From Bacillota bacterium (GTDB lineage: Bacteria; Bacillota; Bacilli; Bacillales; Bacillaceae_B): a DNA stretch of 64,000 nucleotides. This document shows, one piece after another, positions 4,874-52,125 of this stretch (positions within the stretch are counted from its first letter, which is position 1; each line of letters starts with the position of its first letter). The notes under the pieces are model-generated. The model had not been told where the DNA came from. It made no database searches and saw only the letters and a list, made by a program, of their open reading frames with translations. Position numbers and translations under genes: made by a program. The stretch spans positions 98,901 through 162,900 of the forward strand of contig JBNJJV010000007.1 of assembly GCA_051750565.1 (NCBI GenBank), read 5' to 3'.

Positions 4874-4875
4874 CT

Positions 4876-5768: not shown

Positions 5769-5782
5769 TGAAAAGGCTTTCA
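5769..5782. promoter_or_regulatory. cre-like (CcpA) site TGAAAAGGCTTTCA
   Basis: It matches WTGNAANCGNWNNCW except for the central C. It lies in the divergent rpiR/EIIA promoter region. A 13-bp palindrome GAAATTAAATTTC sits at 5808-5820. Confidence 0.35.
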
Positions 5783-5902
5783 GTTTAATATGATTATATG
5801 CGATAATGAAATTAAATTTCAATATTATTTTAAAATATTTAAACTTTTATTTTACTATTCTAGTAGAAAATGATTCTAAACAGGAATGAGGAGGAATACA
5901 CA

Positions 5903-6235
5903 ATGGCAGAGGTACGCAACGTAGAAATGGAGATTTTTGAAATTATATCAAACGGCGGGAATGCAAAAAGCATCGCATATGAGGCCCTGACAAAGGCACA
6001 TGAAGGTAAGTTTGAAGAAGCTGAAGAGATGCTGAAAACAGCCCATGCAGAACTGAACAAAGCTCACAAAACGCAAACGAGTCTCATTCAGGCTGAAATC
6101 AATGGAGAAGATTTTGAAAAATCACTTCTGATGATTCATGCTCAAGACCACTTGATGACCTCCATCAGTGAAATTTCTTTAATTGAACAAATGATTCCCC
6201 TGTTAAAAAGAATAGATGCACTGGAAAACAAATAA
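5903..6235 (+). CDS. PTS lactose/cellobiose-family EIIA
   Basis: MAEVRNVEMEIFEIISNGGNAKSIAYEALTKAHEGKFEEAEEMLKTAHAELNKAHKTQT...HAQDHLM. ATG 5903 follows GAGGAGG. Confidence 0.88.
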   Translation: MAEVRNVEMEIFEIISNGGNAKSIAYEALTKAHEGKFEEAEEMLKTAHAELNKAHKTQTSLIQAEINGEDFEKSLLMIHAQDHLMTSISEISLIEQMIPLLKRIDALENK

Positions 6236-6253
6236 TTTTAAGGAGGCATACCA

Positions 6254-7342: not shown

Positions 7343-7359
7343 TGTGGAGGTTTCTTTAG

Positions 7360-8274: not shown

Positions 8275-9433
8275 GCGTTTAGCTGTTGGGTTAATGTCCG
8301 GTACGTCTGTGGATGGGGTGGATGCTGCCCTTGTTTCAATTGAAGGCAGCGGCACGGATACAAAAGTGGAGCTCGTTCATTATTCGACGGCTCCCTTCCC
8401 TCCACACGTAAAAAAGAAGATCTTCGACGTTATGAGTGTCACAGAATCGTCCACTCCCCTCCTTTCCAGCTTGCATTTTGAGCTTGGAGACGTTTATGCC
8501 GAGGCTGTTTTGAAGGTGTGTACAGAGGCTGACGTTTCAGTAGAGGCGTTAGACTTTATCGGATCTCACGGGCAAACGGTCTATCACCAGCCCTTTCATA
8601 CGGAAGATTCGGTTCCTTCCACTCTACAAATTGGTGAGCCGAGCGTGATTGCGTATCGAACAAACACTCAAGTCGTCTCCAATTTCCGCTCCATGGATAT
8701 GGTTGCCGGCGGTGAAGGGGCACCACTTGTACCTTATACTGAATTCCTTCTCTATCGAAAAAAAGATCAGGGAAGACTTCTTCAGAATATTGGCGGCATT
8801 GGAAATGTGACCGTACTTCCTAAAGATTGCGCTCTTCAAGAAGTATTCGCGTTTGATACTGGTCCCGGAAATATGGTTATAGATGGATTATGCGAGCGAC
8901 TATTCGGTCTATCTTTTGATGAGGATGGAGCGATTGCTGCGAAGGGAACGGTCCGCAAAGACGTCGCACAGAAATGGATGGAATGGGAGAAGGATTTCTT
9001 CCTTAAAGAACCTCCAAAATCAACGGGGCGCGAGCTGTTTGGAGAAGTATTCGTGAATCGGATCCTCGAAGAGTTTGGTGATCTTTCGAAAGAAGACCTG
9101 ATTGCGACGGCAACCTACTTCACTGCTCTGACGATTTCGGTTTCTTATGAGAAATTCATTCTTCCAGAGCACCCTATTAACGAAGTCATCATTGGCGGCG
9201 GCGGAAGCTACAATGGGACACTTCTCCGTATGATGAGGGAGCTTCTTCCTCAGTTAGCCATTCACATTCAGGAAGATTTCGGCTATTCTTCCGATGCCAA
9301 AGAAGCGATCGCCTTTGCCCTCCTGGCAAACGAAACGCTTCACGGAAATCCGGGCAACGTCCCAGGAGCAACAGGAGCAGGTAAACCCGTCATACTGGGG
9401 TCCATCACTCCCCGTCCCGTATTTACAAATTGA
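8267..9433 (+). CDS. anmK: Anhydro-N-acetylmuramic acid kinase
   Basis: MSKRLAVGLMSGTSVDGVDAALVSIEGSG... is the AnmK signature N-terminus. It overlaps the upstream gene by 8 nt. Confidence 0.88.
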   Translation: MSKRLAVGLMSGTSVDGVDAALVSIEGSGTDTKVELVHYSTAPFPPHVKKKIFDVMSVTESSTPLLSSLHFELGDVYAEAVLKVCTEADVSVEALDFIGSHGQTVYHQPFHTEDSVPSTLQIGEPSVIAYRTNTQVVSNFRSMDMVAGGEGAPLVPYTEFLLYRKKDQGRLLQNIGGIGNVTVLPKDCALQEVFAFDTGPGNMVIDGLCERLFGLSFDEDGAIAAKGTVRKDVAQKWMEWEKDFFLKEPPKSTGRELFGEVFVNRILEEFGDLSKEDLIATATYFTALTISVSYEKFILPEHPINEVIIGGGGSYNGTLLRMMRELLPQLAIHIQEDFGYSSDAKEAIAFALLANETLHGNPGNVPGATGAGKPVILGSITPRPVFTN

Positions 9434-9529
9434 AAGGCAGGTACTGTAGAGCATGGACCTTCATAAGATCCTACTGAAACGAGAAATCCTCATACATTAA
9501 ACATAGATACATTAAGCACGGAGAATATT

Positions 9530-10351
9530 TTGGAAAAAATCAATGGAGAAGATCAAACTGTTGCATACGCCGTGGAAAAAACCATCCCTGTCGTGGCAGG
9601 TGTGGTCGATTCCATCGTCGCAGGTTTAGAAAAAGGCGGCCGTCTTCTTTATGTAGGTGCAGGCACAAGCGGACGCCTAGGCATCCTTGACGCATCAGAG
9701 TGCCCGCCTACCTTTAGCACAGATCCCGGCAAGGTGATCGGAATCATCGCGGGTGGTGAAAGAGCCATCCAGTTTCCCCTGGAAGGCGCAGAGGATGATG
9801 AAGAAGGCGGCCGCAACGATATCGCGATTCGTGAAGTTGGCGCAAATGATGTCGTGGTTGGTATTGCTGCAAGCGGACGAACGCCTTATACGATAGGGGC
9901 CTTAAAGGAAGCAAAATCAAGAGGTGCTGTAACCGCGTCTGTTGTGTGCTCACCTCAATCCCTAATGTGTGATGTGGCCGATCATTCGATCGTCGCAGAA
10001 GTCGGTCCGGAAGTCGTCACAGGCTCGACACGCATGAAAGCCGGAACAGCCCAAAAACTGATCCTTAATATGCTCACAACCGCATCCATGATCAAACTTG
10101 GCAAAGTATACAGCAATCTCATGGTCGACGTGATGCCTTCAAACGAAAAACTGAAAGTCAGAGCGCGCAACATCATCATGGAAGCAGCGGACGTCTCTGA
10201 ACGAGAAGCAACCGAAGCCCTTGAAACATACGGCAGCGTCAAACCTGCCATCCTATCGCTTCTGACAGGCCTCGAAGAAAAAGAAGTCTACGACCTTCTC
10301 ACCCTTCACAAAGGCCACCTGCGCTCAGCCCTGAAAGCCGCAATGAAATAA
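9530..10351 (+). CDS. murQ: N-acetylmuramic acid 6-phosphate etherase; 5' end appears frameshifted (see finding)
   Basis: GAGTSGRLGILDASECPPTF, AASGRTPY and GSTRMKAGTAQK are SIS/MurQ motifs. The conserved N-terminal TETRNPHTLNIDTLSTENIL is encoded in-frame upstream (9473-9529) but has no start codon. Confidence 0.85.
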   Translation: MEKINGEDQTVAYAVEKTIPVVAGVVDSIVAGLEKGGRLLYVGAGTSGRLGILDASECPPTFSTDPGKVIGIIAGGERAIQFPLEGAEDDEEGGRNDIAIREVGANDVVVGIAASGRTPYTIGALKEAKSRGAVTASVVCSPQSLMCDVADHSIVAEVGPEVVTGSTRMKAGTAQKLILNMLTTASMIKLGKVYSNLMVDVMPSNEKLKVRARNIIMEAADVSEREATEALETYGSVKPAILSLLTGLEEKEVYDLLTLHKGHLRSALKAAMK

Positions 10352-10359
10352 CCTTTTAT

Positions 10360-10371
10360 GAGGGACGGACC
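10360..10371 (+). repeat. Single arm of the GAGGGACGGACC element
   Basis: Exact 12-mer 8 nt after the murQ stop. Confidence 0.9.
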
Positions 10372-10450
10372 TTGACTAAACGTCAGGTATCGTCTCTTTA
10401 CTCTTTTTATATCCGATTTGAAAAACATGTTAAAAAAGGTGGAAATTAGT

Positions 10451-11863
10451 ATGATCACTCCTAACATCAAAAAACGGTTCATCGAAATCGTTGGCAAAGA
10501 AAGTTACAGGGATACTCCCGCGGAAAAGCTTGTCTATTCCTATGACGCAACTCCTAATTACCAATCCATGCCTGACGCGGTCATCGTTCCCCGCTCGACA
10601 GAGGAAGTATCAGAAATCGTGAAAATCTGCAACGAGCATGGCATTCCAATCGTCCCAAGAGGATCCGGAACGAATCTCTGCGCAGGCACCTGCCCTACAG
10701 AAGGCGGACTTGTTCTCTTATTCACCCATATGAACAAGATTCTGGAAGTGGACGAAGAGAATCTGACGGTTACCGCCCAGCCTGGTGTGGTGACCCTGGA
10801 TCTCATTCATACAGTTGAAGCAAAGGGTCTCTTCTATCCTCCTGACCCAAGCTCCATGAAAATCTCAACGATCGGTGGAAATATCAATGAGAACTCCGGT
10901 GGATTGAGAGGATTGAAATATGGAGTTACACGGGATTATGTACTGGCTTTAGAAGCTGTGCTCCCTAACGGAGACATCATCCGTACCGGGGGAAAACTCG
11001 CAAAAGACGTTGCTGGCTATGATTTAACCCGCCTTTTCGTTGGATCTGAAGGAACCCTATGCGTCATCACCGAAGCGACATTAAAGCTCGTTCCCATGCC
11101 TGAAACGAAGCAAACGATGCTGGCCCTCTATCAGGATATTGAAGCAGCTGCCCAAAGCGTTTCAAGTATCATCGCCAATCGTATTATTCCGACTACCCTT
11201 GAATTTTTAGATCAGCCTACACTTGAGGTGGTTGAGGATTTTGCCAAAATCGGGTTACCAACCGATGTAAAAGCAGTACTCTTGATCGAACAGGACGGTC
11301 CTCCGGAAGTGGTTGCACGTGATATGAAACGAATGGAAGAAGTGTGTTTACAGAACAACGCCGTATCCGTTCAATTAGCCAAAACGGAGATAGAAGCAGA
11401 TGCCCTTCGTACCGCCCGCCGCTCTGCCCTATCGGCACTGGCCCGTCTCAAACCGACGACGATTTTAGAGGACGCGACGGTTCCACGCTCGGAAATCGCC
11501 AAGATGGTGAAAGCGATCAATGATATTTCCGATCGCTATGAGTTGAAGATTTGTACCTTTGGTCATGCCGGGGACGGAAACCTTCACCCGACGGTTGCGA
11601 CAGATGCCAGGGACCATGATGAAATAGAACGTGTCGAAGCGGCATTCGAAGAAATCTTTGCTCATGCCATTGAATTGGGCGGAACCATCACTGGAGAACA
11701 CGGTGTCGGCATGATGAAAGCCCCTTACCTCGAATGGAAACTGGGACCCGAAGGCATTGCAGCCATGAAAATAATCAAGCAATCATTCGATTCGAACAAC
11801 ATTATGAATCCGAATAAAGTATTCGCTAAAGAATCAAGAAAACGTGTGGTGATTTCAAGATGA
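10451..11863 (+). CDS. glcD: FAD-linked oxidase, glycolate oxidase/D-lactate dehydrogenase subunit GlcD-like
   Basis: MITPNIKKRFIEIVGKESYRDTPAEKLVYSYDATP...VPRGSGTNLCAG. ATG 10451 follows AAAGGTGG. Confidence 0.85.
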   Translation: MITPNIKKRFIEIVGKESYRDTPAEKLVYSYDATPNYQSMPDAVIVPRSTEEVSEIVKICNEHGIPIVPRGSGTNLCAGTCPTEGGLVLLFTHMNKILEVDEENLTVTAQPGVVTLDLIHTVEAKGLFYPPDPSSMKISTIGGNINENSGGLRGLKYGVTRDYVLALEAVLPNGDIIRTGGKLAKDVAGYDLTRLFVGSEGTLCVITEATLKLVPMPETKQTMLALYQDIEAAAQSVSSIIANRIIPTTLEFLDQPTLEVVEDFAKIGLPTDVKAVLLIEQDGPPEVVARDMKRMEEVCLQNNAVSVQLAKTEIEADALRTARRSALSALARLKPTTILEDATVPRSEIAKMVKAINDISDRYELKICTFGHAGDGNLHPTVATDARDHDEIERVEAAFEEIFAHAIELGGTITGEHGVGMMKAPYLEWKLGPEGIAAMKIIKQSFDSNNIMNPNKVFAKESRKRVVISR

Positions 11864-13179
11864 CAACCCTTCTAGAAAAACAAAAGATACAACAGGAATT
11901 TAAAGACCGCATGGATGAAGATGAATTATTGAATTGTATGAGATGCGGTTTCTGTCTCCCTTCCTGCCCTACGTATATTGAGTCAGGATTTAAAGAATCC
12001 CACTCCCCTCGCGGTCGAATTGCCTTAATTAAGGCAGTGGTGGATGGTGTCATAGAACCCGATGAAGAAGTCGAACGAACATTGGATTTGTGCTTAGGCT
12101 GCAGAGCCTGTGAACCCGTTTGTCCTTCCGGTGTGAACTACGGTCACCTATTAGAAGACGCACGCGATATCATCAATCAAAATAAAAAACATTCCCTTCC
12201 TGTACGGGTCCTTCGAAAAACCGTTTTTGAAGGATTATTCCCACACCAGGACAGAATGAGAATGGTCACGAACCTTCTTGGAATCTACCAACGCTCAGGA
12301 TTGCAGAAGGCGGTCCACAGGACGGGTGTGATAAAACTATTACCGGAAAGCATGGCGACAATGGAACGCGTACTTCCTCAAGTTCCAAAGTTGAAAGACA
12401 TGAAGGAACGCCCAACGTCTCTTTCCTCGATTGGTGACGTCCGTAAAAAAGTCGCTTTCTTCTCTGGCTGTTTAATGGATACGATGTTTCTGGAAACAAA
12501 TAATGCCACTACGAAACTATTGCAGTTGGCAGGCTGTGACATTGTGATCCCAAAGATGCAAACCTGCTGCGGAGCCTTACATGGTCATAGCGGTGAAAAA
12601 AATGCAGCGAAGGATTTGGCAAAGCGAAACATCGCTGCTTTTGAAGAATCAGGAGTCGATTACATCATCACCAATGCCGGGGGATGCGGAGCCTTTCTCG
12701 TCGACTATGATCACTTACTGAAGGATGATCCAGATTGGAAAGAACGTGCGGTTCAATTTATAAATAAAATCAAAGACATCTCTTCCATTCTTGTAGAATT
12801 AGAGTTTCATAAAAAGAAATTGAACATTTCCTCTCAACGGATCACGTATCAGGATTCGTGTCACTTGCGAAACGTGCAGCGTACATTTGCGGAACCAAGG
12901 CTCCTCCTTCGATCAGTGGAAGGTGCTGATTACGTCGAGATGAAACAAGCCGATCACTGTTGCGGATCAGCCGGGATCTACAACATCGTCGAATCAGAAA
13001 TGTCCATGAAGATCCTCGATCACAAAATGGACAACGTCGAACAAACCCAAGCAACCACCATCATCACATCAAACCCAGGCTGCCTCCTCCAAATGAAACT
13101 CGGCATCGAACGGGAAGGCCTATCTAACAAAATGCGTGCAATCCACATCGTAGACTTTTTATTGGAAGCAATTCAGTGA
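11860..13179 (+). CDS. glcF: (Fe-S)-binding subunit GlcF-like (2x 4Fe-4S motifs + CCG domains)
   Basis: CMRCGFCLPSCPTY and CLGCRACEPVCPSGV. It overlaps the glcD stop by 4 nt. Confidence 0.85.
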   Translation: MTTLLEKQKIQQEFKDRMDEDELLNCMRCGFCLPSCPTYIESGFKESHSPRGRIALIKAVVDGVIEPDEEVERTLDLCLGCRACEPVCPSGVNYGHLLEDARDIINQNKKHSLPVRVLRKTVFEGLFPHQDRMRMVTNLLGIYQRSGLQKAVHRTGVIKLLPESMATMERVLPQVPKLKDMKERPTSLSSIGDVRKKVAFFSGCLMDTMFLETNNATTKLLQLAGCDIVIPKMQTCCGALHGHSGEKNAAKDLAKRNIAAFEESGVDYIITNAGGCGAFLVDYDHLLKDDPDWKERAVQFINKIKDISSILVELEFHKKKLNISSQRITYQDSCHLRNVQRTFAEPRLLLRSVEGADYVEMKQADHCCGSAGIYNIVESEMSMKILDHKMDNVEQTQATTIITSNPGCLLQMKLGIEREGLSNKMRAIHIVDFLLEAIQ

Positions 13180-39054: not shown

Positions 39055-39072
39055 GAAAAAATGAGGGACGGA

Positions 39073-39448
39073 ATTTTATACGTTGTAAACAGTGTTCGTG
39101 ATATCACCGAACTCTTAACATTAAAGCTTCAAATCGATGAGCTGCAAGAACTAAAGAACCTCCTCCAAAGTTCGAATGCCACGTTTTCTAATGAAGCAGA
39201 GAAGTCATCCATCTATTCCAGTGAAGGATGAAGAAGGTATTTACCATCATTGATCGAGTAGCGAAAACCGATGCAAAAGTTCTCTTGCAGGGGGAAACCG
39301 GTGTCGGGAAAACGATGATTGCAAAATACATACACGAGCATTCGAATCGTTCGACCGCCAGTTTTCTAGAGCTTAACTGCGGAGCCTTCCCTCCAAGTTT
39401 AATAGAGGCAGAATTATTCGGGTATGAATCAGGTGCTTTATCTAAAGG
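39073..39448 (+). pseudogene. Fragment copy of the sigma-54 activator gene (paralogous to 51061-51449)
   Basis: It is roughly 90% identical by eye to the 50521-52125 gene over about 376 bp. It has a 1-nt deletion (GTGAAGGATG vs GTGAAAGGATG) and a 12-nt deletion that removes the SFTG of the GAFTGA loop. Confidence 0.85.
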
Positions 39449-39490
39449 CGGAGATTCTTAATATGAAGTCTATCGATCAGCTGAATAACG

Positions 39491-39521
39491 GAGGGACGGA
39501 CCTTTTCAAGGTCCGTCCCTC
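39491..39521. repeat. Minimal GAGGGACGGACC hairpin
   Basis: GAGGGACGGACC-ttttcaa-GGTCCGTCCCTC lies 8 nt from the deoR stop. Confidence 0.85.
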
Positions 39522-39529
39522 CTCTTATT

Positions 39530-40306
39530 TCACCCGATAACCCATTTCTTTTTCAGTATTGCATCTTCCCATTCTTCGGGAGCATCTACGTCGCTGATGA
39601 TGAAGTCAAATTGGTTAAATTCTGCTATTCGATAAGTGGCTTTGACCCCGATTTTCACGCTGTCAGCCAGCAAGTATGTGTGAGTGGCATTGCGTAGGTA
39701 TACTTGTGCTAATTGGGATTTTTCCAGGTCGTAGCTCATGACTCCTTTAGGATGGAATAATCCATCTGTAGAAATAAATGCCTTGTCTGCCCAAAATTCT
39801 TTGGCGATTTTTTCTGTCAGGGATCCTCCCGAACGATAGTGAAGGGGCTGTACACTTCCGCCGATAAAAACGATTTCCCCATCAAATTGGTTATGGTTCG
39901 AGTAAGAAATCAGTGCGGATGCTACTGGAAATGAATTCGTAATCACGGTGATATTGTGCTTAGCACATAACCCTTTTATCATTTGTAACGGTGTACTTCC
40001 TTCATCTATGATAATGACGTCATTGTCTTCAATAAACTGAAGTGCCCTGTCAGCTATCTTCTTCTTTTCATTGATCCGTACGATTTCTCTTTCATATAAC
40101 GCAGGCTCTCCAGTATCTTCCTCTATTTTCACGGCTCCACCGTAGACTTTTTTCAGCTTTTGCTCACTTTCCAACTCCTCTAAATATCTTCTGATGGTTT
40201 CTGTTGAAACATCAAATTTTTCTGCTAGTTCAGCCACACGGACCTGACCATATTCTTCCAGGTCTGACTGGATGATCTTTTTACGTTCTTCTGCTAAAAG
40301 TGACAT
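39530..40306 (-). CDS. DeoR-family transcriptional regulator
   Basis: MSLLAEERKKIIQSDLEEYGQVRVAELAEKFDVSTETIRRYLEELE... plus a DeoR C-terminal sensor domain. Confidence 0.85.
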   Translation of the reverse strand: MSLLAEERKKIIQSDLEEYGQVRVAELAEKFDVSTETIRRYLEELESEQKLKKVYGGAVKIEEDTGEPALYEREIVRINEKKKIADRALQFIEDNDVIIIDEGSTPLQMIKGLCAKHNITVITNSFPVASALISYSNHNQFDGEIVFIGGSVQPLHYRSGGSLTEKIAKEFWADKAFISTDGLFHPKGVMSYDLEKSQLAQVYLRNATHTYLLADSVKIGVKATYRIAEFNQFDFIISDVDAPEEWEDAILKKKWVIG

Positions 40307-40326
40307 TGAAATTCTCCTTAAATCTC

Positions 40327-41508
40327 TTAAGCTTTATAAGGTTTACCTATTATTTCTCTTTTTTTATGTATAAAAATATCCCGTTTTTCTAATTCTTCAA
40401 AAAATTCTTTCGGATCCTGAAAGGCATCCTCAGGAATGATGATTCCTGTGTCTTTTACTTTTCCTTCCGCTATCATCCCAGTGGCAATGGCAAAAGGAAT
40501 GGCTACATTTCGAGTATACGCTCTAAGTCCTTCCCAGCCCATTACTGAGCCATCTGATAATGGATGCGTATGGTAGAGTGTATGCTTTACTTTTTCATCG
40601 TTTTTCTCACCCACTACCTCAATGTGTAAGGCATACCCGTATAGATCCGTTTCGTTCCCTTCCTTGGATTGATGCAAATATGTCGCTAAAACGTCCATGA
40701 CCCCGACCTCCTTTCCGTTGATTTCAACCTTGTCGTTTCTCAAAATACCATATTCATATAAGGACTTAATCAAGTTCATGTTTTTCTCTGGCCATGTTCC
40801 ACGGACTTCAATGAGTTGAACTCCTTTGGATCTTAATGCTTTAGCCAGGGTTTTCGTCTCAGCATGAGGAATGATATATTGAATTCCTTCTCCATAAGGT
40901 TCGGGTAACTCAATTTTTCTTGGACGGGCAAATGGAGGAACCTGAATGAATTTACCATTCTCATATACCACTCTACCCGGAAGTTTAGGATCGTACTCAT
41001 AGGTTGTCGTCTCTGTAATCGATTTAGAAAAGGCAATCGGGCGATAGGAACCATGACTGACCCGCACACTCTCAACCTTATCTAGTTGATTGGTAGCATG
41101 AATAGCCATAAGTTGTGTCAGTCCGGGAGTCATTCCAAATCCAGGGAGACAAGTCCTTCCTTTTTCCTTGAACAGATCGTGATAGGCATCCTCTTCTCCG
41201 AAGCCATTCAGGTTGATTCCGTGGCATCCCGCTTCGGCTATACAAGCCGTCGTTTTCCCATTTAATGCAATGGTGGTGCCATCCATGACAATGTCATAGC
41301 CTCTCATCTTTGAAACCGTATCCTCATGGTCATGAACATTCACTTTCACAAAATTCACCCGGGGATCATTTAACCATTCAACTACTTTTTTTCCTTCATC
41401 CTCGTTATAATCGGCGACTGTAATAAGGTCAAAATCAGAGTGGGTCACTAAATCCAAAATCGCCTCCCGGGCTATCTTCCCGGCTCCTCCTAAACAAAAT
41501 ACCTTCAT
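40327..41508 (-). CDS. Saccharopine dehydrogenase-like NAD(P)-binding oxidoreductase
   Basis: MKVFCLGGAGKIAREAILDLV... is a Rossmann fold; 393 aa. The Sacchrp_dh-like architecture is assigned by eye. Confidence 0.7.
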   Translation of the reverse strand: MKVFCLGGAGKIAREAILDLVTHSDFDLITVADYNEDEGKKVVEWLNDPRVNFVKVNVHDHEDTVSKMRGYDIVMDGTTIALNGKTTACIAEAGCHGINLNGFGEEDAYHDLFKEKGRTCLPGFGMTPGLTQLMAIHATNQLDKVESVRVSHGSYRPIAFSKSITETTTYEYDPKLPGRVVYENGKFIQVPPFARPRKIELPEPYGEGIQYIIPHAETKTLAKALRSKGVQLIEVRGTWPEKNMNLIKSLYEYGILRNDKVEINGKEVGVMDVLATYLHQSKEGNETDLYGYALHIEVVGEKNDEKVKHTLYHTHPLSDGSVMGWEGLRAYTRNVAIPFAIATGMIAEGKVKDTGIIIPEDAFQDPKEFFEELEKRDIFIHKKREIIGKPYKA

Positions 41509-41570
41509 GAGATCATGGCTCCTTCTCTATAGTTGATATTCTTGAATGGCACTTATCAATTTGAAATCTC

Positions 41571-41675
41571 TTACCTCTCTTCAAAGATTTTAATAAATAC
41601 ATGCAGGGGAGCAAAGCACCCATAATCAATGGTTGTTCCAGCCCAGTCAAACATAACTCCGTCTACTTTTCTCAT
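41571..41675 (-). pseudogene. phnX: Phosphonoacetaldehyde hydrolase (PhnX) N-terminal stub, 34 codons
   Basis: AAGGAGA..ATG(41675): MRKVDGVMFDWAGTTIDYGCFAPLHVFIKIFEER*. This matches the PhnX N-terminus (..VIFDWAGTTVDYGCFAPLEVFM.IF..RG). The remaining ~230 codons are absent. Confidence 0.75.
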
Positions 41676-41695
41676 TCTTTCATTCTCCTTTTCTC

Positions 41696-43450
41696 TTATC
41701 TTTGCCATAAGGCATTCCTTTTTCTGATTCCATTTAAAGCCCATTCATATAACACTCTTACCACTATATTTGTCAGAACGATGAGTACGCTCATGGCTGC
41801 TGCTGATGCCAGATTTCCTGCATCGTCCATATTCACAATGGAGATGGCTGCCAGTTTAAAGTCTGCAGAGTAGAGAAAAACAACGGCAGAAATGGTGACC
41901 ATACTGTTAACAAAGTAGAACATGGCAATCTCAAGAATCGCGGGCAGACACATAGGGATCGTAACCCTGAACACCGTTTTATAAAACGGGACTCCCATTG
42001 ATTCTGATACAAGCTCGAATTCCTTATCTAATTTCTTCAATGAAGTGGTAGCCGTAACGAAAGCCACCGAATAAAAGTGCACAATATTGGCAAGAACGAT
42101 GATGGCTATCGTTCCATATATAAAGTGAAACGGATTTGAAAAATTGATTCCTAATAGGTTGATTTCAGGTTTGCTGAAAAAGAAGATGTAGCTGATCCCT
42201 ACCACAAGTCCGGGTACGGAAAGTGGAATGATTGAAAACAAGTAGCCCAGTCTACGAAGCTGAGTCAATTTCCGTATCTTTTCAATGGTATAGGCGAATA
42301 TAAAAGTGAAAATCGTCCCAAAGAATGCGGTTAACCCGGCAGCTAGTAAACTATTCTTATACGCTGCCAATCCATCCCCTGAAAGACTGGTAAACTTGAA
42401 GTGATCGAGGGTAACCCCCATATTATATGGCCAGATTTTCACACTTGCCGCTACCAATACAGCGAAGAATAATAGAAAAATAAATCCTGTAAAAAGAAAG
42501 CAATAAGCGAATGCAAGGAAATCTCTACCTTTATTTCGATTTATTTTGTAAGCCATTGATTTCGAAGTAACGTATGTTGATTGTTTCTTTTGAACAAATT
42601 GATCCACAAAGAAAGCAAGCAGGGCGGGAAGCATTAAAATGACACCAACCGTTGCTCCCATGGAAAGATTTTGTTGACCGACCACTTGTTTATAAATGTC
42701 TGTGGCCAGGACATTGAACTGTCCACCCACTACTTTAGGTGCGCCATAGTCTGTAAAACTTAATGTAAATACGACAAACATCGAACTGATCAAACCATAC
42801 TTTGCGCTTGGGAGGGTTATCGTTGTAAATTGTTTAAGCTTACTGCTCCCTAACGTATTTGCTGCTTCATACAATCGATAATCTGTGTGTTGCAAAGTAA
42901 TATACAAAATAAGGAACGCTTGTGGAAACGTATAAACGGTTTCCGCTAAGATAATTCCAATCGGTCCATACAGTTCAAATTGAAATCCAGGTATCGCCCC
43001 CAAAAAACCATTCGTGATCAACCCCTGATTCCCAAACAGATACATTAGTCCGATTCCATGCATCATCGTAGGAGCAAACAACGGTAGCAATGCTGAGTAT
43101 CGATAAAACGTCTTCCCTATCATTCTCGTTCTCGTCAAGGCATAGGCATATCCGAAAGCCAAGCCCACCGAAAGAACCATCGTAATGCTGGATACATAGA
43201 CTGTGTTCTGCAGGGATGCAACAAGAGTAGGGGTCTTAAAATACTGGATGAAGTTGCTCAATCCAGCAAAATTCCCTTCCCGATCAAATAGGGTTTGACT
43301 GAACAGGGCGGATAAAGGTAGAACAAGTGTCACAACAAATGATAGAATCACGAACACAATGAGAATCGTTTGAATCTGCTCATTTTTCCCCTGACGAGTC
43401 CTCTTTTTATTCAAACGTCTGACAAAATCCAATCTTTTCACCAATTCCAT
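41696..43450 (-). CDS. ABC transporter fused double permease (FbpB/PhnU-like, 12 TM)
   Basis: The protein is 584 aa and contains two BPD_transp_1-type halves. Confidence 0.85.
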   Translation of the reverse strand: MELVKRLDFVRRLNKKRTRQGKNEQIQTILIVFVILSFVVTLVLPLSALFSQTLFDREGNFAGLSNFIQYFKTPTLVASLQNTVYVSSITMVLSVGLAFGYAYALTRTRMIGKTFYRYSALLPLFAPTMMHGIGLMYLFGNQGLITNGFLGAIPGFQFELYGPIGIILAETVYTFPQAFLILYITLQHTDYRLYEAANTLGSSKLKQFTTITLPSAKYGLISSMFVVFTLSFTDYGAPKVVGGQFNVLATDIYKQVVGQQNLSMGATVGVILMLPALLAFFVDQFVQKKQSTYVTSKSMAYKINRNKGRDFLAFAYCFLFTGFIFLLFFAVLVAASVKIWPYNMGVTLDHFKFTSLSGDGLAAYKNSLLAAGLTAFFGTIFTFIFAYTIEKIRKLTQLRRLGYLFSIIPLSVPGLVVGISYIFFFSKPEINLLGINFSNPFHFIYGTIAIIVLANIVHFYSVAFVTATTSLKKLDKEFELVSESMGVPFYKTVFRVTIPMCLPAILEIAMFYFVNSMVTISAVVFLYSADFKLAAISIVNMDDAGNLASAAAMSVLIVLTNIVVRVLYEWALNGIRKRNALWQR

Positions 43451-44461
43451 TTAATAAACCACCTGTTCTTTATAAGATAGAACTTGGGCCTCAGGAAATT
43501 GCACGTAAATGGTAGACCCGATTTGTAAGTCCAACTCTTTAATGAACGAGGCAAATAAATCTGCCTCCACTATTTGGTTGTGTAGTTGGGAAGAAAGATC
43601 TGTAATCTTCAGCTGGAGTCGATAGGTCGAGCCCCTGAATTCCATCGTTTGAACGACTGCTTCGATTCCTTTAATATGGGAAAGCTGAATATGTTCAGGG
43701 CGAATCGCCTGCGTCAAACCGCCTTCTAAGTGATTCCACATATTGATCGACCCGATGAAGTCCGCTACAAAAGGATTCTTTGGACGATAATAGATCTCTT
43801 CAGGCGTTCCCACCTGCATGACTTCTGCATTGTTCATCACGACCACTTTGTCTGCCATCGTTAACGCTTCCTCCTGGTCATGAGTCACCATGATCGTGGT
43901 TATCCCCAGATTATCTTGAATCTCTCTGATTTCATAACGAAGCTTTTGCCTTACCTTTGCATCCAAAGCAGATAAAGGTTCGTCCAATAATAAGAAAGAG
44001 GGGGATAAGGCAATCGCTCTTGCTAATGCCACCCTCTGCTGCTGACCACCTGATAAATGAGCAGGATATTTATCTTTTATATGTTCAAGATCTACCATTT
44101 GAAGTGCTTCAATCGCTTTCTGTTTTCGTTCGGCTTTAGAAACTTTTTTATTTTTCAATCCATATTCAACATTTTGGATGGCTGTGAGATTAGGAAATAA
44201 GGCGTATGATTGAAACACGATGCCAAACTCTCTTCGCGCCGGGGGGAGATGTAATAATTCTCCGCCTTGTTTTTTGATCGACCCCTTGTCCGCTTCCTCA
44301 AGTCCTGCAATGATCCGTAAAAGTGTTGTTTTGCCGCACCCACTGGGACCTAATAAACAAACAAATTCATTTTTTTGAATATCGAAAGAAATATTCCGCA
44401 AAGCTTGGAAATCTCCAAATGTTTTCGAAATGTTCCTGATTTCTAAGAACGGCTGTACCAT
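43451..44461 (-). CDS. ABC transporter ATP-binding protein (PotA/FbpC-like with C-terminal TOBE-type domain)
   Basis: Walker A is GPSGCGKTT, the signature is LSGGQQQRVALARA and Walker B is LLLDEP. Confidence 0.9.
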   Translation of the reverse strand: MVQPFLEIRNISKTFGDFQALRNISFDIQKNEFVCLLGPSGCGKTTLLRIIAGLEEADKGSIKKQGGELLHLPPARREFGIVFQSYALFPNLTAIQNVEYGLKNKKVSKAERKQKAIEALQMVDLEHIKDKYPAHLSGGQQQRVALARAIALSPSFLLLDEPLSALDAKVRQKLRYEIREIQDNLGITTIMVTHDQEEALTMADKVVVMNNAEVMQVGTPEEIYYRPKNPFVADFIGSINMWNHLEGGLTQAIRPEHIQLSHIKGIEAVVQTMEFRGSTYRLQLKITDLSSQLHNQIVEADLFASFIKELDLQIGSTIYVQFPEAQVLSYKEQVVY

Positions 44462-44537
44462 ACTTTTTCCTCTCCATTTCTTGAACCTATCCCCCTGTAG
44501 AAGAGGGGTGTCTTCTGCAGGAGGACATAGGGGTCAA

Positions 44538-45605
44538 TTATTCCTTCGGTTCAGCCTTACTTCCAAAGCTGGAATCCCATTTTTCTAAGATGCTGTCGCG
44601 ATTCTCCGCGGCCCAGTTCAGGTCATTTTCTTTATACATCTTTTCTTCAACCCCGGAAGGGAAGCCATCCGGTTTTGGAAAATCATTTTCCATTGTAGAG
44701 AACCCGTTGGCATCATAATATTTCTTCATCACCTCGTCCGTAATCGCCCAGTCTAAAAATGCTTTTGCTAATTCTTCATTGTTGCCTTCTTTCTTAATAA
44801 GGGCATTCGCTTCTACTTCCCAGCCCAGACCCTCTTCAGGAAGAATCACTTCAACAGGTGCTCCTTGCTGCTTTTGAGTTACTCCGCTGTAAACTAGGGA
44901 GATGCCAATCGGGAACTCACCTGTTGCTGCAAGCTTTGCAGGCTTGGAACCGGAATGTGTGTACGTTGCGACATTTTCATGAAGTTTGCTCATATAATTC
45001 CAGCCTTTTTCTTCACCCATCATTTGCACCCAAGCAGATGATGTCAGGAATCCTGTACCGGATGAAGCTGGATAAGGCATAACGATTAACTCCTTATATT
45101 CAGGTTTTAATAGATCTTTATATGTCTTAGGTGCTTCGATTCCAAGCTTTTCAAGCTCAGCTGTGTTGATGACAATGCCTGTCATGAACGCCGTATTTCC
45201 TACCCATTTCATTGGTTCATTTGAATCTTTGTAAGGATCAAGGATCTTCTCACTGCCCTCTGGCGTATATTTTGCCAGCATATCCTTCTGATCCAGGGCG
45301 AGTAAGCTGGAAGCTGCAAGGCCCCATACCACATCTGCACTTGTATTTTTCCCTTCAGAAAGAAGCTTTGCCGTGATGATACCGGTTGAATCTCGAACCA
45401 TGTTTAATTTGACATTAGGATACATTTCTTCAAATGATTTTGTGTATTCAGGGATTAATTCCTCTTCAATTGCTGTATAGACCGTTAATTCTCCAGAAAG
45501 TTCTTCATTGGCCCCTGCCGCTTCTTTTGACATTTCTTTTCCACAAGCTGCTAGTAAACAGACAGCCATCACTAGAAAAATTAATTTCTTCGTATACACC
45601 TTCAT
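44538..45605 (-). CDS. ABC transporter substrate-binding lipoprotein (putative 2-aminoethylphosphonate/Fe3+-type family)
   Basis: MKVYTKKLIFLVMAVCLLAACGKE carries a lipobox. ATG 45605 lies 10 nt after AAGGAG. Confidence 0.8.
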   Translation of the reverse strand: MKVYTKKLIFLVMAVCLLAACGKEMSKEAAGANEELSGELTVYTAIEEELIPEYTKSFEEMYPNVKLNMVRDSTGIITAKLLSEGKNTSADVVWGLAASSLLALDQKDMLAKYTPEGSEKILDPYKDSNEPMKWVGNTAFMTGIVINTAELEKLGIEAPKTYKDLLKPEYKELIVMPYPASSGTGFLTSSAWVQMMGEEKGWNYMSKLHENVATYTHSGSKPAKLAATGEFPIGISLVYSGVTQKQQGAPVEVILPEEGLGWEVEANALIKKEGNNEELAKAFLDWAITDEVMKKYYDANGFSTMENDFPKPDGFPSGVEEKMYKENDLNWAAENRDSILEKWDSSFGSKAEPKE

Positions 45606-45809
45606 ATTGAACACTCTCCTTTAGATTCTTTGTAATAGTTCAGTAGATTCCTGTAAATTACGGTATCGTTCTTTCATGATAAAAGTTTGATCCTTGCTTT
45701 TGTTTTTGTTGTTTTAATTTGTTTTTGTTTGCTTCACACTTAAAATTTACTTGTTATTTTTTAATCTCAAATAAATACCATATTAATTTATTGTAAATTT
45801 GTTGTTGTT

Positions 45810-46817
45810 TTATATTGTTTTTGGTAGATCTGCCATAATTCGCTTCTTTTTCTCAAACGTGGCAATCTTTCTAACTCCCATACTCTTCAAATCAGACATG
45901 CTCTCATGAACATAAGCTCCTATGTTCTCTGGAAAGTGAGCATCTGATGATAGAGTAAAAGGAACGCCATGCTCTACTAAAATAGATGTGAATGGTTGAC
46001 TAGGACACTTTTCTTTGACCGGAAAGCGGTAGTATAATCCGGAATTCATTTCAGTCGCTACATCATGATCCCTTAAGGCTCTCGCTACTGATTGGTAATG
46101 AGGAATAAGATCCGCTTCATCCGGTCGATGGCCAAAGACCTTCAAATTATCAAGATGTGACATGTATTGAAACAATCCCGTTTTAATCCCTTTCTCAATC
46201 GTCTGATAGAATTGTGAATACAATGTCTTAAGATCATATTGAAGGAATAACCCATTTGCAGACGGGTTATCAAAACCCCAGCCATTAAGGAAGTGCACAG
46301 AGCCGCTGATAAAATCACAGTCAATTGGCTGAATGAAACTAGCCAAATCCTGCTCCCCACCATCAAAATAGTCAGCTTCTATCCCGACTCTTAGCCTGAC
46401 CCCTTTTTCTTCCCATTTCTTCTTCGCTCTTTCAGTTGCGTAAAGAAACTCATCTACTCCCTCTGTCATGACTTGATCTAACCACTTTGTTTGAAGCTTC
46501 CCAAGTTCTGAGGAACCAAGATCGATATGGTGTTCAAAATATCCTCGCATTTCTTTAAATCGATATAAGTGCTCCACAATTCCCACTTCTTTAAGACCTT
46601 TCTCAATGGCCGCTTGTAAATATAGATCCAGCCATTGTTCATCATACGATCCCTTTTGAACCCGATTGAGCATAAGCCTCAATGTATGTTCGAGCCATTC
46701 TTTGGAATGAGTTTGATCATGGACTTGTTTCAGCATTTCATAGGATAGATAGGTCCTTTTCATCCAGTTGAATGAATAAGGACCTTCTTCTAAATGCACA
46801 TGGTAATCGCAATACAA
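45810..46817 (-). CDS. PHP-domain phosphoesterase (HisJ histidinol-phosphatase-like)
   Basis: MYCDYHVHLEEGPYS... and GSVHF.. and SSDAHFPENIG are PHP metal-ligand motifs. Confidence 0.75.
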   Translation of the reverse strand: MYCDYHVHLEEGPYSFNWMKRTYLSYEMLKQVHDQTHSKEWLEHTLRLMLNRVQKGSYDEQWLDLYLQAAIEKGLKEVGIVEHLYRFKEMRGYFEHHIDLGSSELGKLQTKWLDQVMTEGVDEFLYATERAKKKWEEKGVRLRVGIEADYFDGGEQDLASFIQPIDCDFISGSVHFLNGWGFDNPSANGLFLQYDLKTLYSQFYQTIEKGIKTGLFQYMSHLDNLKVFGHRPDEADLIPHYQSVARALRDHDVATEMNSGLYYRFPVKEKCPSQPFTSILVEHGVPFTLSSDAHFPENIGAYVHESMSDLKSMGVRKIATFEKKKRIMADLPKTI

Positions 46818-49188: not shown

Positions 49189-49559
49189 AACACCCTACCT
49201 CCATGATCATTGTTTGTTTTAGTCGGGAGTCTTTCATTCCTCCTGCTCTACTTCTTCATCCTAAGACATAATTATTGAAAGACTATTAAAGACGTTAGGA
49301 GAAAAAGTAAACAAAACACAGAAAACAAATGAAAACAAAATTCCCGTTTAAACGACAAAAACCCCTATTTACTCGACTCCCCTTCGTACTCTAGTAAAAG
49401 AAATAGACAAAAACGCATAAGAAATTGATTTGTTTTCCTTGTTACTTTTGATTAATTTACAAAAGTTAATAATTTCGTAGCATACATTTCATAATCACTT
49501 TTTATAATTGGCTAAAATGTAAGCAATGAAGAAATTGGGGGAAAGGGGAGAAATATCCC

Positions 49560-50330
49560 GTGATGACAGAAAGACAAAAATCAATCGTACGAGAGTTAGA
49601 GATAAAAAATAAGGTCAGCGTGGCAAATTTATCAAAAAAGTTAAAGGTAACCCCAGAAACGATTCGAAAGGATTTAATCCTCCTGGAACAAAAGAAGAAA
49701 TTACGGAGAATTCACGGGGGAGCGATTCCGTACTATGGTTTAATAAAAGAACCTCATTTCAATAAAAAAATTGGAATCTCTCATGATCAAAAAAAGCGAA
49801 TCGGGGAAGTTGCTTCTACATTTATTACTGATGGAGAAACGATCGCTCTGGATGTTGGTTCAACCACCTTGCATATCGCCAGCTCGATAAAGGATGTTCA
49901 AAATGTAACGATTGTGACTAACTCTTTAGCTGCGGCAGACATTCTGAACACACGATTGGAAAACCATCTATTTGATGGAAATGTCATTGTACTGGGTGGA
50001 GCAACGAATCCATTGCAACGTTCAGTAAGCGGCTCGTTAACGAATATATTATTAGAGAATTTTTATTTCGACAAAGCCTTCATATCTTGTGGTGGAATTA
50101 ATAAAGAGGGAATATGTGATTTTAATATTGATGAAGCTGCTGCATCTTCCATAATGATCAAGAAAACAAGGAAAGTGTTTGTTGTTTCGGATTCATCCAA
50201 GTTGAATCAAAATGCTCTGTTTCACATCGGATCATTCTCATCGATTGATTGTGTGATATCGGATGTTTCTATACCTAAAGAATGGATGAAAGATTCAATG
50301 ATTAATAAGGTTGAATGGATAAAAGTTTGA
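49560..50330 (+). CDS. DeoR-family transcriptional regulator
   Basis: MMTERQKSIVRELEIKNKVSVANLSKKLKVTPETIRKDLILLE... plus a DeoR C-terminal domain. Confidence 0.85.
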   Translation: MMTERQKSIVRELEIKNKVSVANLSKKLKVTPETIRKDLILLEQKKKLRRIHGGAIPYYGLIKEPHFNKKIGISHDQKKRIGEVASTFITDGETIALDVGSTTLHIASSIKDVQNVTIVTNSLAAADILNTRLENHLFDGNVIVLGGATNPLQRSVSGSLTNILLENFYFDKAFISCGGINKEGICDFNIDEAAASSIMIKKTRKVFVVSDSSKLNQNALFHIGSFSSIDCVISDVSIPKEWMKDSMINKVEWIKV

Positions 50331-50453: not shown

Positions 50454-50520
50454 AACGCGTTAGTGTATGATAGAATTAATTTAGAGTAATTGATTTTTGT
50501 TTGCTTGGAGGTTGTTTAGG

Positions 50521-52125
50521 ATGCGGCTTTATATGACAGATAAAGTGGAACGTGCGATTGAGTTATTCTCTCAATCAGAGGTGGATGCTCTTGAGGTAGT
50601 GAATCATGAGGAAGAGATTGTAGGAATTCTTACACTAGAAGAATTAGGTACGATTTTTCATGATGGCCATTTAGGTGGTATGGTCGGTGAAATTTTCCAA
50701 AAAAGCATGTCACATCCATCTCCTCTTCAAGAACAAAAACGGAAGAAAAACCAATATAGTGATTTACTAGAGAGTCATGTTTTTAACGATATAATCAATT
50801 CCCTTTATGATGGGGTCTTCATTACAGATGGATATGGTATTACAGTCAAGGTAAACAAATCCTATGAAAGAATAGCGGACCTGAAATCCGAGCAACTAAT
50901 CGGCTATCATATGGAAGAGCTCATTAAGGCTGGATATATATCCAAATCTGCCTCCATCCAGGTCTTGAAAGAAAAAAGACCGATAACATTGATGCAGTCC
51001 ATTCACAACGGAAGAAAAATCATCGTGTCCGGTACACCGATTTTTAATGAGGAAGATGAAATTTTATATGTTGTAAACAGTGTTCGTGATATCACCGAAC
51101 TATTAAAATTAAAGCTACAAATTGATGAGTTGCAAGAACTAAAGAATCTCCGCCAAAGTTCGAATGCCACGTTTTCTAATGAAGCAGAGAAGTCCTCCAT
51201 CTATTCCAGTGAAAGGATGAAGAAGGTTTTCACCACCATTGATCGAGTAGCCAAAACCGATGTAAAAGTTCTCTTACAGGGGGAAACCGGTGTTGGGAAA
51301 ACGATGATTGCAAAATACATACACGAGCATTCGAAACGTTCGACCGGTAGTTTTCTAGAGCTTAACTGCGGAGCCTTCCCTCCAAGTTTAATAGAGGCAG
51401 AATTATTCGGCTATGAATCAGGTTCTTTCACCGGTGCTTTATCTAAAGGGAAAAAAGGATTGCTGGAAGTGGCGGATAATGGCACGTTATTCCTTGATGA
51501 AATTGGGGATCTTCCTTTGGAGCTTCAAGTAAAACTACTAAAGGTCATTGAAGATCAAGCGTTCATCCCCATTGGTTCATCAAAACTCAAACAAATTAAT
51601 GTTCGCATTATCGCTGCTTCCCATAAAAACATTAAGAACTTAGTGGACATAGGGGAATTTCGCGAAGACTTATATTACCGTTTAAACGTCGTTCCAGTTC
51701 AAATCCCTTCCCTCCGTCAGCGTCGCGAAGAAATCATTCCGCTTTCTCAACACTTTTTACAAAGCTTCAATGATGAATATGGATCAAGCAAAGTGATGAG
51801 CATTGAGGCATTGGATTGTTTACATGAATATGATTGGCCTGGGAATATTAGAGAATTAAAAAATTTGATAGAGCGCTTAGTCGTTATCACTCCTTCAGAA
51901 ACAATCGGACGTGAAGATCTACCACCTGAATTAAGTGAAGCCACCAAGAAACCAGGCTCACTTTATGAAGGAGAAATTCTTCCTTTAAAAGAGGCCGTGG
52001 ATCGAGTAGAGAAACAATTGATCACCAATGCAATACGAAAATATAAAACAACGAGAAAAGCAGCAGAAATTCTCGAAGTCAGCCAATCCACGATTGTCCA
52101 AAAAATGAAGAAATGGGAGCTTTGA
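50521..52125 (+). CDS. Sigma-54-dependent transcriptional activator (N-terminal sensor + PAS + AAA+ + Fis HTH)
   Basis: Walker A is GETGVGKT, the GAFTGA-type loop is ESGSFTGA, GTLFLDEIG is present, and the C-terminal HTH is RKAAEILEVSQSTIVQKMKKW. ATG 50521 follows GGAGG. Confidence 0.88.
   Translation: MRLYMTDKVERAIELFSQSEVDALEVVNHEEEIVGILTLEELGTIFHDGHLGGMVGEIFQKSMSHPSPLQEQKRKKNQYSDLLESHVFNDIINSLYDGVFITDGYGITVKVNKSYERIADLKSEQLIGYHMEELIKAGYISKSASIQVLKEKRPITLMQSIHNGRKIIVSGTPIFNEEDEILYVVNSVRDITELLKLKLQIDELQELKNLRQSSNATFSNEAEKSSIYSSERMKKVFTTIDRVAKTDVKVLLQGETGVGKTMIAKYIHEHSKRSTGSFLELNCGAFPPSLIEAELFGYESGSFTGALSKGKKGLLEVADNGTLFLDEIGDLPLELQVKLLKVIEDQAFIPIGSSKLKQINVRIIAASHKNIKNLVDIGEFREDLYYRLNVVPVQIPSLRQRREEIIPLSQHFLQSFNDEYGSSKVMSIEALDCLHEYDWPGNIRELKNLIERLVVITPSETIGREDLPPELSEATKKPGSLYEGEILPLKEAVDRVEKQLITNAIRKYKTTRKAAEILEVSQSTIVQKMKKWEL

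Follow-up and report, generated by a model that had tools for sequence, protein, structure and literature searches.

A Bacillaceae aminoethylphosphonate operon probably disabled by an internal phnX-phnW deletion, and its conserved saccharopine dehydrogenase-family gene

Does a phosphonate uptake locus that has kept only a fragment of phnX represent a new route of phosphonate use or a broken version of an old one? The question is raised by a 64-kb stretch of a Bacillaceae genome (contig JBNJJV010000007.1, positions 98,901 to 162,900; here called the window, whose own numbering is used throughout), in which genes for an ABC importer of the 2-aminoethylphosphonate (AEP) type are followed by a 34-codon phnX stub, a gene for a saccharopine dehydrogenase-family oxidoreductase (SDH), and a gene for a DeoR-family regulator. 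Known phosphonatase operons for AEP combine PhnW, PhnX, and an AEP ABC importer, as in B. cereus and in Salmonella (phnR-phnSTUV-phnWX). PhnW transaminates AEP with pyruvate to yield phosphonoacetaldehyde (PAA), and PhnX hydrolyzes PAA to acetaldehyde and phosphate. An earlier note on this DNA had described the locus as remodelled, with SDH and DeoR in place of phnWX. We took genes from a listing of open reading frames (ORFs) and from direct reading of the sequence and assigned them by Pfam and NCBIfam profile searches. Compared with its relatives, the window locus is very probably a seven-gene AEP operon crippled by an internal deletion of ~1.78 kb. Features are listed in Table 1.

The nearest intact relative (L001; L001 and L002 are the best match) is ~88% identical to the window at the nucleotide level and encodes an SDH that is 89% identical. 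It has the same flank as the window, with a 267-amino-acid (aa) PhnX and a 370-aa PhnW where the window has the stub. In blastn alignments, window positions 46847 to 41578 correspond to L001 positions 2884 to 8168 (88.9% identity), and window positions 41560 to 39519 correspond to L001 positions 9950 to 11987 (87.3% identity). Between these collinear blocks lie 1,781 bp of L001; the window instead has ~17 nucleotides (nt), GAGGTAAGAGATTTCAA. The lost segment comprises phnX from about codon 34 to codon 267, the spacer, and phnW codons 1 to ~353. Base-level comparison with L001 places the TAA of the stub inside the junction filler, and no insertion sequence (IS) element or other insert was found at the junction. 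The earlier statement that no phnW is present stands insofar as no PhnW is encoded in the window, but the last ~17 codons of the gene survive (~50 to 55 nt of the L001 phnW end), reading ...LISAIQEYQL and then a new TAG. The SDH gene retained its own ribosome binding site (RBS; GAAGGAG, 41525 to 41519) after the deletion, which may be recent. The best match of the filler, 14 of 17 positions, is to L001 positions 9633 to 9649, within phnW; such a match could point to a compound deletion, although it is too weak to support a claim of one.

The stub ORF, MRKVDGVMFDWAGTTIDYGCFAPLHVFIKIFEER*, starts with an ATG at 41675, ends with a TAA at 41573 to 41571, and has kept its native RBS (AAAGGAG, 41691 to 41685). 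It had been recognized earlier as the N terminus of PhnX carrying HAD motif I, and the profile and alignment results bear this out. The stub matches positions 2 to 30 of the 251 positions of the phosphonoacetaldehyde hydrolase profile TIGR01422 (48.4 bits; cutoff, 220), is 91% identical to residues 1 to 34 of the intact PhnX of L001 (tblastn; E = 1.4e-16), and has the motif FDWAGTT with its nucleophilic Asp at residues 9 to 15. It falls far short of a full-length PhnX, which has a HAD core and a cap domain and scores >220 bits. The ORF stops at residue 34, so that HAD motifs II to IV and the Schiff-base lysine (Lys53 of the cap domain in B. cereus PhnX) are gone, and the matching DNA is deleted. 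Because phnX after codon 34 and nearly all of phnW are missing, the locus is left unable to cleave the C-P bond; no further PhnX, PhnW, or PhnA is encoded elsewhere within the 64 kb. For annotation, phnX and phnW should be marked here as deleted, and no new pathway should be inferred.

All three importer components score above the curated equivalog cutoffs that define the PhnS2/PhnT2/PhnU2 putative AEP ABC transporter. This profile check agrees with the earlier assignment of the importer to the putative 2-AEP ABC type that normally precedes phnWX. The substrate-binding protein (SBP) has the lipobox LLAAC, as read directly from the sequence, and is 93% identical to its L001 counterpart at the amino acid level. 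The ATPase matches PF00005 and PF08402 (TOBE_2 domain), and the permease holds two BPD_transp_1 stretches. The DeoR regulator has both its N-terminal HTH_DeoR domain and its C-terminal DeoRC sensor domain.

The arrangement in L001 is widespread. The order SBP-ATPase-permease-PhnX-PhnW-SDH-DeoR was found at 14 complete nonredundant loci in at least 6 genera, and ~10 partial contigs also fit it. Its carriers include members of the B. cereus group, Fictibacillus barbaricus, Pseudobacillus wudalianchiensis, Neobacillus mesonae, and Paenibacillus swuensis, along with one Logan assembly and many metagenome contigs. The SDH start overlaps the phnW stop at the four loci checked (L001, L003, L017, and L018), and every seven-gene locus ends with the DeoR gene. 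With this order conserved in 14 complete loci, SDH and DeoR are therefore ancestral, conserved operon members and not replacements for phnWX. The adjacency of the importer genes to phnW and phnX is likewise seen in these 14 orthologous loci; in the window, both genes are deleted. The locus thus resembles the known phosphonatase operons in its PhnS2/T2/U2 importer, in the recognizable N terminus of PhnX, and in the presence of intact PhnX and PhnW at orthologous loci. It differs from them in that phnX is cut to 34 codons and phnW to ~17. The Bacillota version also departs from them in having a DeoR rather than a GntR- or LysR-type regulator and in having an extra SDH-family gene outside the textbook pathway.

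The earlier note had also placed a PHP-family phosphoesterase at the head of the gene string. Its gene is indeed adjacent to and codirectional with the phn genes, all of which lie on the minus strand, but it is an unrelated neighbor and not a phn operon member. Only the window and L001/L002 have it beside the operon; the order in L001/L002 is Metallophos-TatA-TatC-PHP-SBP-ATPase-permease-HAD (267 aa)-Aminotran_5 (370 aa)-SDH-DeoR. The 12 remaining complete seven-gene loci lack it at this place, among them those of the B. cereus group, Fictibacillus, Pseudobacillus, Neobacillus, Paenibacillus, and L017, and it was kept intact in a close relative of the window, L016, despite deletion of the operon there.

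Two other accounts of the locus compete with the internal deletion. One is remodelling by gene replacement, in which SDH and DeoR would have been recruited in place of phnWX to provide a new non-transaminase route. The local appearance of the locus, with the SDH start codon 62 nt past the stop codon of the stub, is all that speaks for this account. Synteny refutes it. Every orthologous seven-gene locus has an intact phnX-phnW directly ahead of SDH and DeoR; the tail of phnW, its last ~50 nt, still stands in front of the window SDH; and the difference from L001 is a 1,781-bp loss without an inserted element. We therefore give replacement almost no credence, and the description of the locus as remodelled gives way to a simple deletion. 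The other account is an assembly or sequencing artifact, in which the 1.78-kb gap would be a misassembly and the real genome would have an intact phnXW. Nothing supports an artifact directly, although the observation comes from a single sequence. The junction is clean, with unique sequence that aligns well on both sides; neither phnX nor phnW is a repeat, so that a collapse would not be expected; and an independent genome of the same group (L016) has other deletions in the operon, indicating that decay is real in this lineage. We consider an artifact very improbable. The event in the window is an ordinary one: an internal deletion has inactivated a conserved AEP operon, and the lineage is in the course of shedding this locus. 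Its clean deletion, its 5′ and 3′ stubs, and the patchwork losses in a sister strain are those of operon decay by internal deletion in free-living Bacillaceae. Nothing about it is unusual for such decay, except that the surviving flanking genes show no decay yet.

Table 1. Features of the phn locus and its surroundings (window positions)
Feature	Position	Strand	Basis
PHP/HisJ-family phosphoesterase	45810-46817	minus	NF005235, 469 bits (cutoff, 442)
Conserved noncoding control region	45600-45821	minus	AAAACAA repeats and conserved block TTTACAATAAATTAATATGGTATT
PhnS2-type lipoprotein SBP, intact	44538-45614	minus	TIGR03261, 466 bits (cutoff, 393)
PhnT2-type ABC ATPase, intact	43451-44461	minus	TIGR03265, 458.0 bits (cutoff, 457.7; marginal)
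PhnU2-type fused two-domain permease, intact	41696-43450	minus	TIGR03262, 743 bits (cutoff, 593)
phnX remnant, 34 codons plus stop	41571-41675	minus	TIGR01422, E = 6.9e-13
Deletion junction filler, ~17 nt	41561-41577	minus	blastn and base-level comparison with L001
phnW 3′ remnant	41527-41560	minus	alignment to the L001 phnW end
SDH-family oxidoreductase, 393 aa, intact	40327-41508	minus	PF03435 and PF16653
DeoR-family regulator, intact	39530-40306	minus	PF08220, E = 1.3e-13; PF00455, E = 1.6e-41
GC-rich hairpin, 15-bp stem	39490-39522		directly after the DeoR stop

The part of the locus that deserves follow-up is the SDH family, which is conserved, uncharacterized, present in phosphonate clusters of several phyla, and not specific to the window. 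Both of its Pfam domains score above their gathering thresholds (Sacchrp_dh_NADP, PF03435, 57.0 versus 25.1; Sacchrp_dh_C, PF16653, 75.0 versus 31), and the N terminus has a GxGxxG Rossmann motif. The exact sequence of the window protein had no record in an exact-sequence lookup. It has >1,000 homologs, of which the top 120 are 69 to 89% identical and come from Bacillaceae, the B. cereus group, Brevibacillus, Paenibacillus, and Aneurinibacillus. Sequence searches against the PDB returned distant relatives only (E = 1e-15 to 2.5e-5). An AlphaFold2 model (pLDDT, 87; pTM, 0.87) was compared with known structures by Foldseek and resembled carboxyspermidine dehydrogenases (8deb, 8h4z, and 4ina; TM score, 0.79 to 0.81; 16 to 20% identity), the Pyrococcus L-lysine 6-dehydrogenase 3abi (0.71 to 0.80; 20% identity), and saccharopine reductases (0.71 to 0.78; ≤20% identity). 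The match to 3abi, the only solved lysine 6-dehydrogenase, is at the fold level only, and this structure was absent among the sequence-search matches at E ≤ 1e-3; some SDH homologs are labelled L-lysine 6-dehydrogenase by JGI. The protein thus shares both Pfam domains, the fold (TM score, 0.71 to 0.81), and GxGxxG with the superfamily of saccharopine reductase, carboxy(nor)spermidine dehydrogenase, and L-lysine 6-dehydrogenase, but it is ≤20% identical to any solved member and belongs to its own tight phosphonate-linked clade. Its identification as a carboxy(nor)spermidine dehydrogenase was rejected, with a score of 26.9 bits against the NF043000 equivalog cutoff of 800.

When 23 members of the family are aligned, 136 of the ~390 residues prove invariant. 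Among these are Arg and His residues (R14, R50, H152, R156, R179, R195, H215, R236, H295, H313, H315, R329, and R376) that are candidates for lining a phosphonate pocket. Identity to the window copy is 61 to 89%, a range that spans Bacillota to Desulfobacterota. The PhnW, PhnX, and transporter genes that accompany SDH are only 25 to 65% identical, making SDH the most conserved gene of the clusters. Such strong conservation is unusual for an accessory catabolic enzyme; alternatively, it may reflect horizontal spread. Since the protein is conserved across its contexts, it probably has a single conserved function. One invariant residue is Asp33, at the end of β2. By a general rule for Rossmann folds, an Asp at this position favors NAD over NADP, which suggests that SDH prefers NAD. 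To our knowledge, all characterized members of this fold group make or break a C-N bond via an aldehyde-amine imine, using NAD(P). Because its fold neighbors (carboxyspermidine dehydrogenase, lysine 6-dehydrogenase, and saccharopine reductase) act on such imines, SDH is expected to catalyze a reaction of the same class.

A genome scan with a single sequence found 10 SDH loci, and a metagenome scan with an alignment brought the census to 96 nonredundant loci, 40 of which had at least 12 kb of flank ("long flanks"). Among these 40, a phn-like marker is present at 35, a PhnW-type aminotransferase at 22, a PhnX-type hydrolase at 19, and an aminotransferase of any type at 29. Because 35 of the 40 carry phn genes, including one cluster of the order PbfA-MFS-SDH-PhnW-PhnA, we infer that SDH is tied to phosphonate catabolism. 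The other five long-flank loci (L008, L042, L043, L054, and L071) have no phn marker within ±10 kb and encode SDH proteins that are 64 to 71% identical; their partner genes may lie elsewhere, or the enzyme may have a role outside phn clusters. In one of them, L008 (Lederbergia lenta NBRC 16444), SDH lies among nucleoside-catabolism and helicase genes.

SDH occurs in at least eight phosphonate cluster architectures, here lettered A to H, in which S2, T2, U2, X, and W stand for the respective phn genes. A is the seven-gene order, S2-T2-U2-X-W-SDH-DeoR. C has the order S2-T2-U2-W-SDH-X (L074, L075, and L079), and D, at lower identity, has X-W-SDH or SDH-X-W. E has the order RpiR-S2-T2-U2-SDH with no PhnW or PhnX detected (L066, 5172 to 11164; L089, 5212 to 11164; L082, 2813 to 9154); the RpiR protein has HTH_6 and SIS domains. 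In L066 and L089, no PhnW or PhnX was found within 10 kb on either side, where IleRS, helicase, and similar housekeeping genes lie, and the SDH start overlaps the permease stop; the contig of L082 is shorter than those of the other two. The three RpiR proteins are only 63 to 67% identical to one another, and the RpiR-transporter-SDH arrangement is therefore evolutionarily stable. An RpiR gene (47% identical) is also found in L075, upstream of S2-T2-U2-PhnW-SDH-PhnX.

Other architectures place SDH with different enzymes. H is the PbfA-MFS-SDH-PhnW-PhnA cluster of L058 (7188 to 13568), in which PbfA, PhnW, and PhnA score above their equivalog cutoffs; SDH is thus associated with the PhnY/PhnA branch of AEP degradation as well. 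The MFS protein of this cluster is an organophosphate transporter, PhnA is a phosphonoacetate hydrolase, and a probable aldehyde dehydrogenase (PhnY-like) is encoded next to them. F has the order LysR-PhnX-like (TIGR03351)-AT3-AT3-ABC-SDH, where AT3 is a class-III aminotransferase, and probably represents a pathway for a different aminophosphonate. It was found in L087 (1116 to 11164) and six similar loci (L069, L070, L076, L084, L096, and L097); the TIGR03351 match is below cutoff, and the ABC genes are distantly PhnS2T2U2-like. G, seen in L015, has the order AT3-AT3-SDH-ABC, with an alanine dehydrogenase (AlaDH) and a PhnW-like gene nearby. B has the order W-DeoR-MgtC-SDH-X beside bacterial microcompartment (BMC) shell, aldehyde dehydrogenase (Aldedh), PTAC, and EutN genes, with or without AlaDH (L019 and L045; the order is rearranged in L005). 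In L019 (Neobacillus mesonae KV440949.1), PhnW, DeoR, SDH, and PhnX lie beside genes for a BMC shell, an aldehyde dehydrogenase, PTAC, EutN, an alanine dehydrogenase, and Ldh, and subsets of these microcompartment-associated genes are found in L045, in L005/L006 (Brevibacillus), and in L030. Clusters of the L019 type are candidates for an AEP-utilization microcompartment in which the acetaldehyde released by PhnX would be confined. The only link between AEP and microcompartments that we found is passing speculation in a paper on metagenome-assembled genomes (PMC9324843).

On the basis of its fold and its genetic contexts, we tentatively propose that SDH acts as an NAD+-dependent C-N oxidoreductase and turns an AEP-related amine into PAA or AEP for the core pathway; its substrate may be an N-substituted AEP that PhnW cannot use. 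The main alternative, that SDH is a direct AEP dehydrogenase that releases ammonium in parallel to PhnW, seems to us rather unlikely. SDH could also turn out to be a new, widespread NAD-dependent phosphonate-catabolic enzyme, a further phosphonate breakdown factor with C-N redox chemistry on AEP or an N-substituted AEP, that is able to work with the importer alone, a possibility that falls somewhat short of an even chance. If so, the window would be a natural phnXW knockout that isolates the function of transporter plus SDH in a Bacillus. SDH cannot replace PhnX for C-P cleavage. Three further roles were considered and set aside. A role as the alanine dehydrogenase regenerating the pyruvate that PhnW needs was rejected in view of the separate AlaDH in L019 and L015, and a role in acetaldehyde handling was rejected in view of the separate Aldedh/PTAC beside SDH in L019, L045, and L005. 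Replacement of PhnW is disfavored by the usual co-occurrence of SDH with an aminotransferase in the long-flank loci (29 of 40). The non-transaminase, NAD(P)-dependent route offered by the earlier note is conceivable as biochemistry, but SDH ordinarily stands beside an aminotransferase and not in its stead.

Accessory enzymes of phosphonate clusters have been described before. The known phosphonate breakdown factors (Pbf; Parma group) turn AEP-related compounds into PAA (PMC8154272, PMC10590968, PMC12366243, PMC13576164). They include PbfA, a pyridoxal phosphate (PLP) lyase of AEP clusters (PMC8154272); PbfB, PbfC, and PbfD, which are FAD amine oxidoreductases (PMC10590968); PbfF, a pf02826 racemase (PMC12366243); and the HEP dehydrogenases PbfG (pf00107) and PhpC (pf00465) (PMC13576164). 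SDH resembles them in being encoded time and again as an additional enzyme within phnWX- or phnWYA-type clusters, and its gene adjoins PbfA in L058. It differs from them in its family and fold, PF03435/PF16653, to which none of them belongs, and in that it is also found with the transporter alone. In the searchable literature, including the Pbf papers, we found no link of a saccharopine dehydrogenase-family protein to AEP or phosphonates. The name "PbfE" is left unexplained in the searchable Pbf literature and may be reserved for an unpublished enzyme. Recurrent cluster genes have repeatedly become new enzymes (PbfA to PbfG), and SDH is an obvious candidate to follow them; work on it could uncover either a new natural aminophosphonate or a way into phosphonate degradation that needs no transaminase.

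Upstream of the SBP gene, the 195-nt PHP-SBP spacer and its borders hold five AAAACAA repeats with 9- to 10-nt phasing (45821 to 45815, 45811 to 45805, 45725 to 45719, 45715 to 45709, and 45706 to 45700). Thus, 5 of the 33 AAAACAA matches in the whole window cluster in a 122-nt stretch in this control region. The motif is enriched 5′ of the SBP gene in 16 of 16 seven-gene loci (1 to 6 copies versus 0.06 to 0.24 expected). A spacer block, TTT[A/G]CAATAAATTAATAT[T/G]GTATT, is common to the window, L001, and L017, the last of which has no PHP gene upstream. Judged by these sequence features, the AAAACAA array is a candidate DeoR operator and the region is a candidate promoter. A consensus promoter scan detected no minus-strand promoter in the control region, and TTTACA/TATTGT was ruled out as a promoter with an N17 spacer, the spacing being 9 nt. 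At the other end of the operon, the GC-rich hairpin after the DeoR gene probably terminates the operon, perhaps bidirectionally. A similar array is found outside the operon: four AAAACAA motifs at 49214 to 49436, including a 10-nt-phased pair (49322/49332), lie upstream of a second DeoR-family gene (49560 to 50330).

The ancestral operon may have worked as follows. The ABC system would import AEP, as its family assignment and gene context suggest, and PhnW and then PhnX would take AEP via PAA to acetaldehyde and phosphate. DeoR would repress the operon through the AAAACAA array until a phosphate or phosphonate ligand is present. SDH, whose start overlaps the phnW stop, would act as an NAD+-dependent C-N oxidoreductase, of either the amine dehydrogenase or the opine type, and deliver an AEP-related amine to the pathway in the form of PAA or AEP. 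The window deletion left the 34-aa stub in place of PhnX and abolished C-P cleavage by the locus; the importer, SDH, and DeoR genes are still intact and probably still cotranscribed, but they are most likely a decaying remnant.

Evidence on the fate of the remnant comes from L016 (Bacillus sp. CH30_1T, NZ_VTUY01000010.1), which is ~97% identical to the window at the nucleotide level across the flanks. This genome retains Metallophos-TatA-TatC-PHP but has lost the equivalent of window positions 45796 to 41001 (the control region, SBP, ATPase, permease, stub, and the SDH N terminus) and 40698 to 39652 (the SDH C terminus and the DeoR N terminus). Only an SDH fragment (aa 162 to 269) and a C-terminal DeoR fragment remain of the operon. 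As L016 has lost most of the operon, the operon is dispensable and eroding in this species-level group. We favor a decaying remnant over a unit of transporter, SDH, and DeoR that still works, though much less firmly than we hold to the origin of the locus by deletion from the seven-gene operon. A dead AEP catabolic locus, one of the two readings offered by the earlier note, is the better supported of the pair. Relative to window positions 37.8 to 45.8 kb, L016 (positions 8443 to 10800) is a patchwork with at least four deletions, and an insertion of ~0.5 kb that is not in the window lies between TatC and PHP (L016 positions 8443 to 8961).

Several observations weigh against decay. All five surviving genes (SBP, ATPase, permease, SDH, and DeoR) are full length, and their pairwise dN/dS values against L001 (0.081, 0.114, 0.091, 0.093, and 0.118, respectively) are the same as those of the flanking genes (0.072 to 0.118). 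Tajima-type tests found no excess of amino acid changes on the window branch relative to L001, with either L017 (46 versus 67) or L018 (38 versus 50) as the outgroup; relaxed selection on the surviving genes was thus undetected by either pairwise dN/dS or the relative-rate test. The window SDH has all 136 family-invariant residues, and neither the control region nor the SDH RBS has been damaged. Natural operons of a regulator, a PhnS2T2U2-like transporter, and SDH alone exist, as in L066, L082, and L089. In addition, the 64 kb in view is only part of the genome, which may have a second phnWX locus elsewhere; Neobacillus mesonae has two phnWX-type loci. The reaction of SDH itself is entirely predicted. 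Several of these observations would suit a remnant that still works, in which the importer, SDH, and DeoR import an AEP-type amine and oxidize or cleave its C-N bond with NAD+; ammonium or an amino or keto acid could then serve as the N or C source, with the C-P bond left uncleaved. Intact genes are, however, equally expected after a recent deletion, and the ~97%-identical L016 has destroyed the transporter, SDH, and DeoR, so that the set is dispensable in the species. SDH mostly accompanies an aminotransferase and a C-P hydrolase, suggesting that it feeds that pathway, and, more speculatively, the set would stay repressed if the DeoR inducer were a PhnW product. We judge a working remnant to be an unlikely alternative. 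Decay remains unproven because the survivors are intact and normally constrained; the deletion is perhaps too recent to have left further traces, or the remnant is useful.

The surroundings of the operon also contain a 373-nt direct repeat (39067 to 39439 and 51055 to 51428; 93 to 94% identity; 11,989 nt apart). The copy at 39.1 to 39.4 kb is a fragment (77-aa ORF, 39228 to 39461) of a sigma-54 activator gene at 50497 to 52125, and between the two copies lies the entire stretch from DeoR through Metallophos to the second DeoR gene. L016 is without the fragment copy of the repeat, which marks this as a rearrangement-prone zone.

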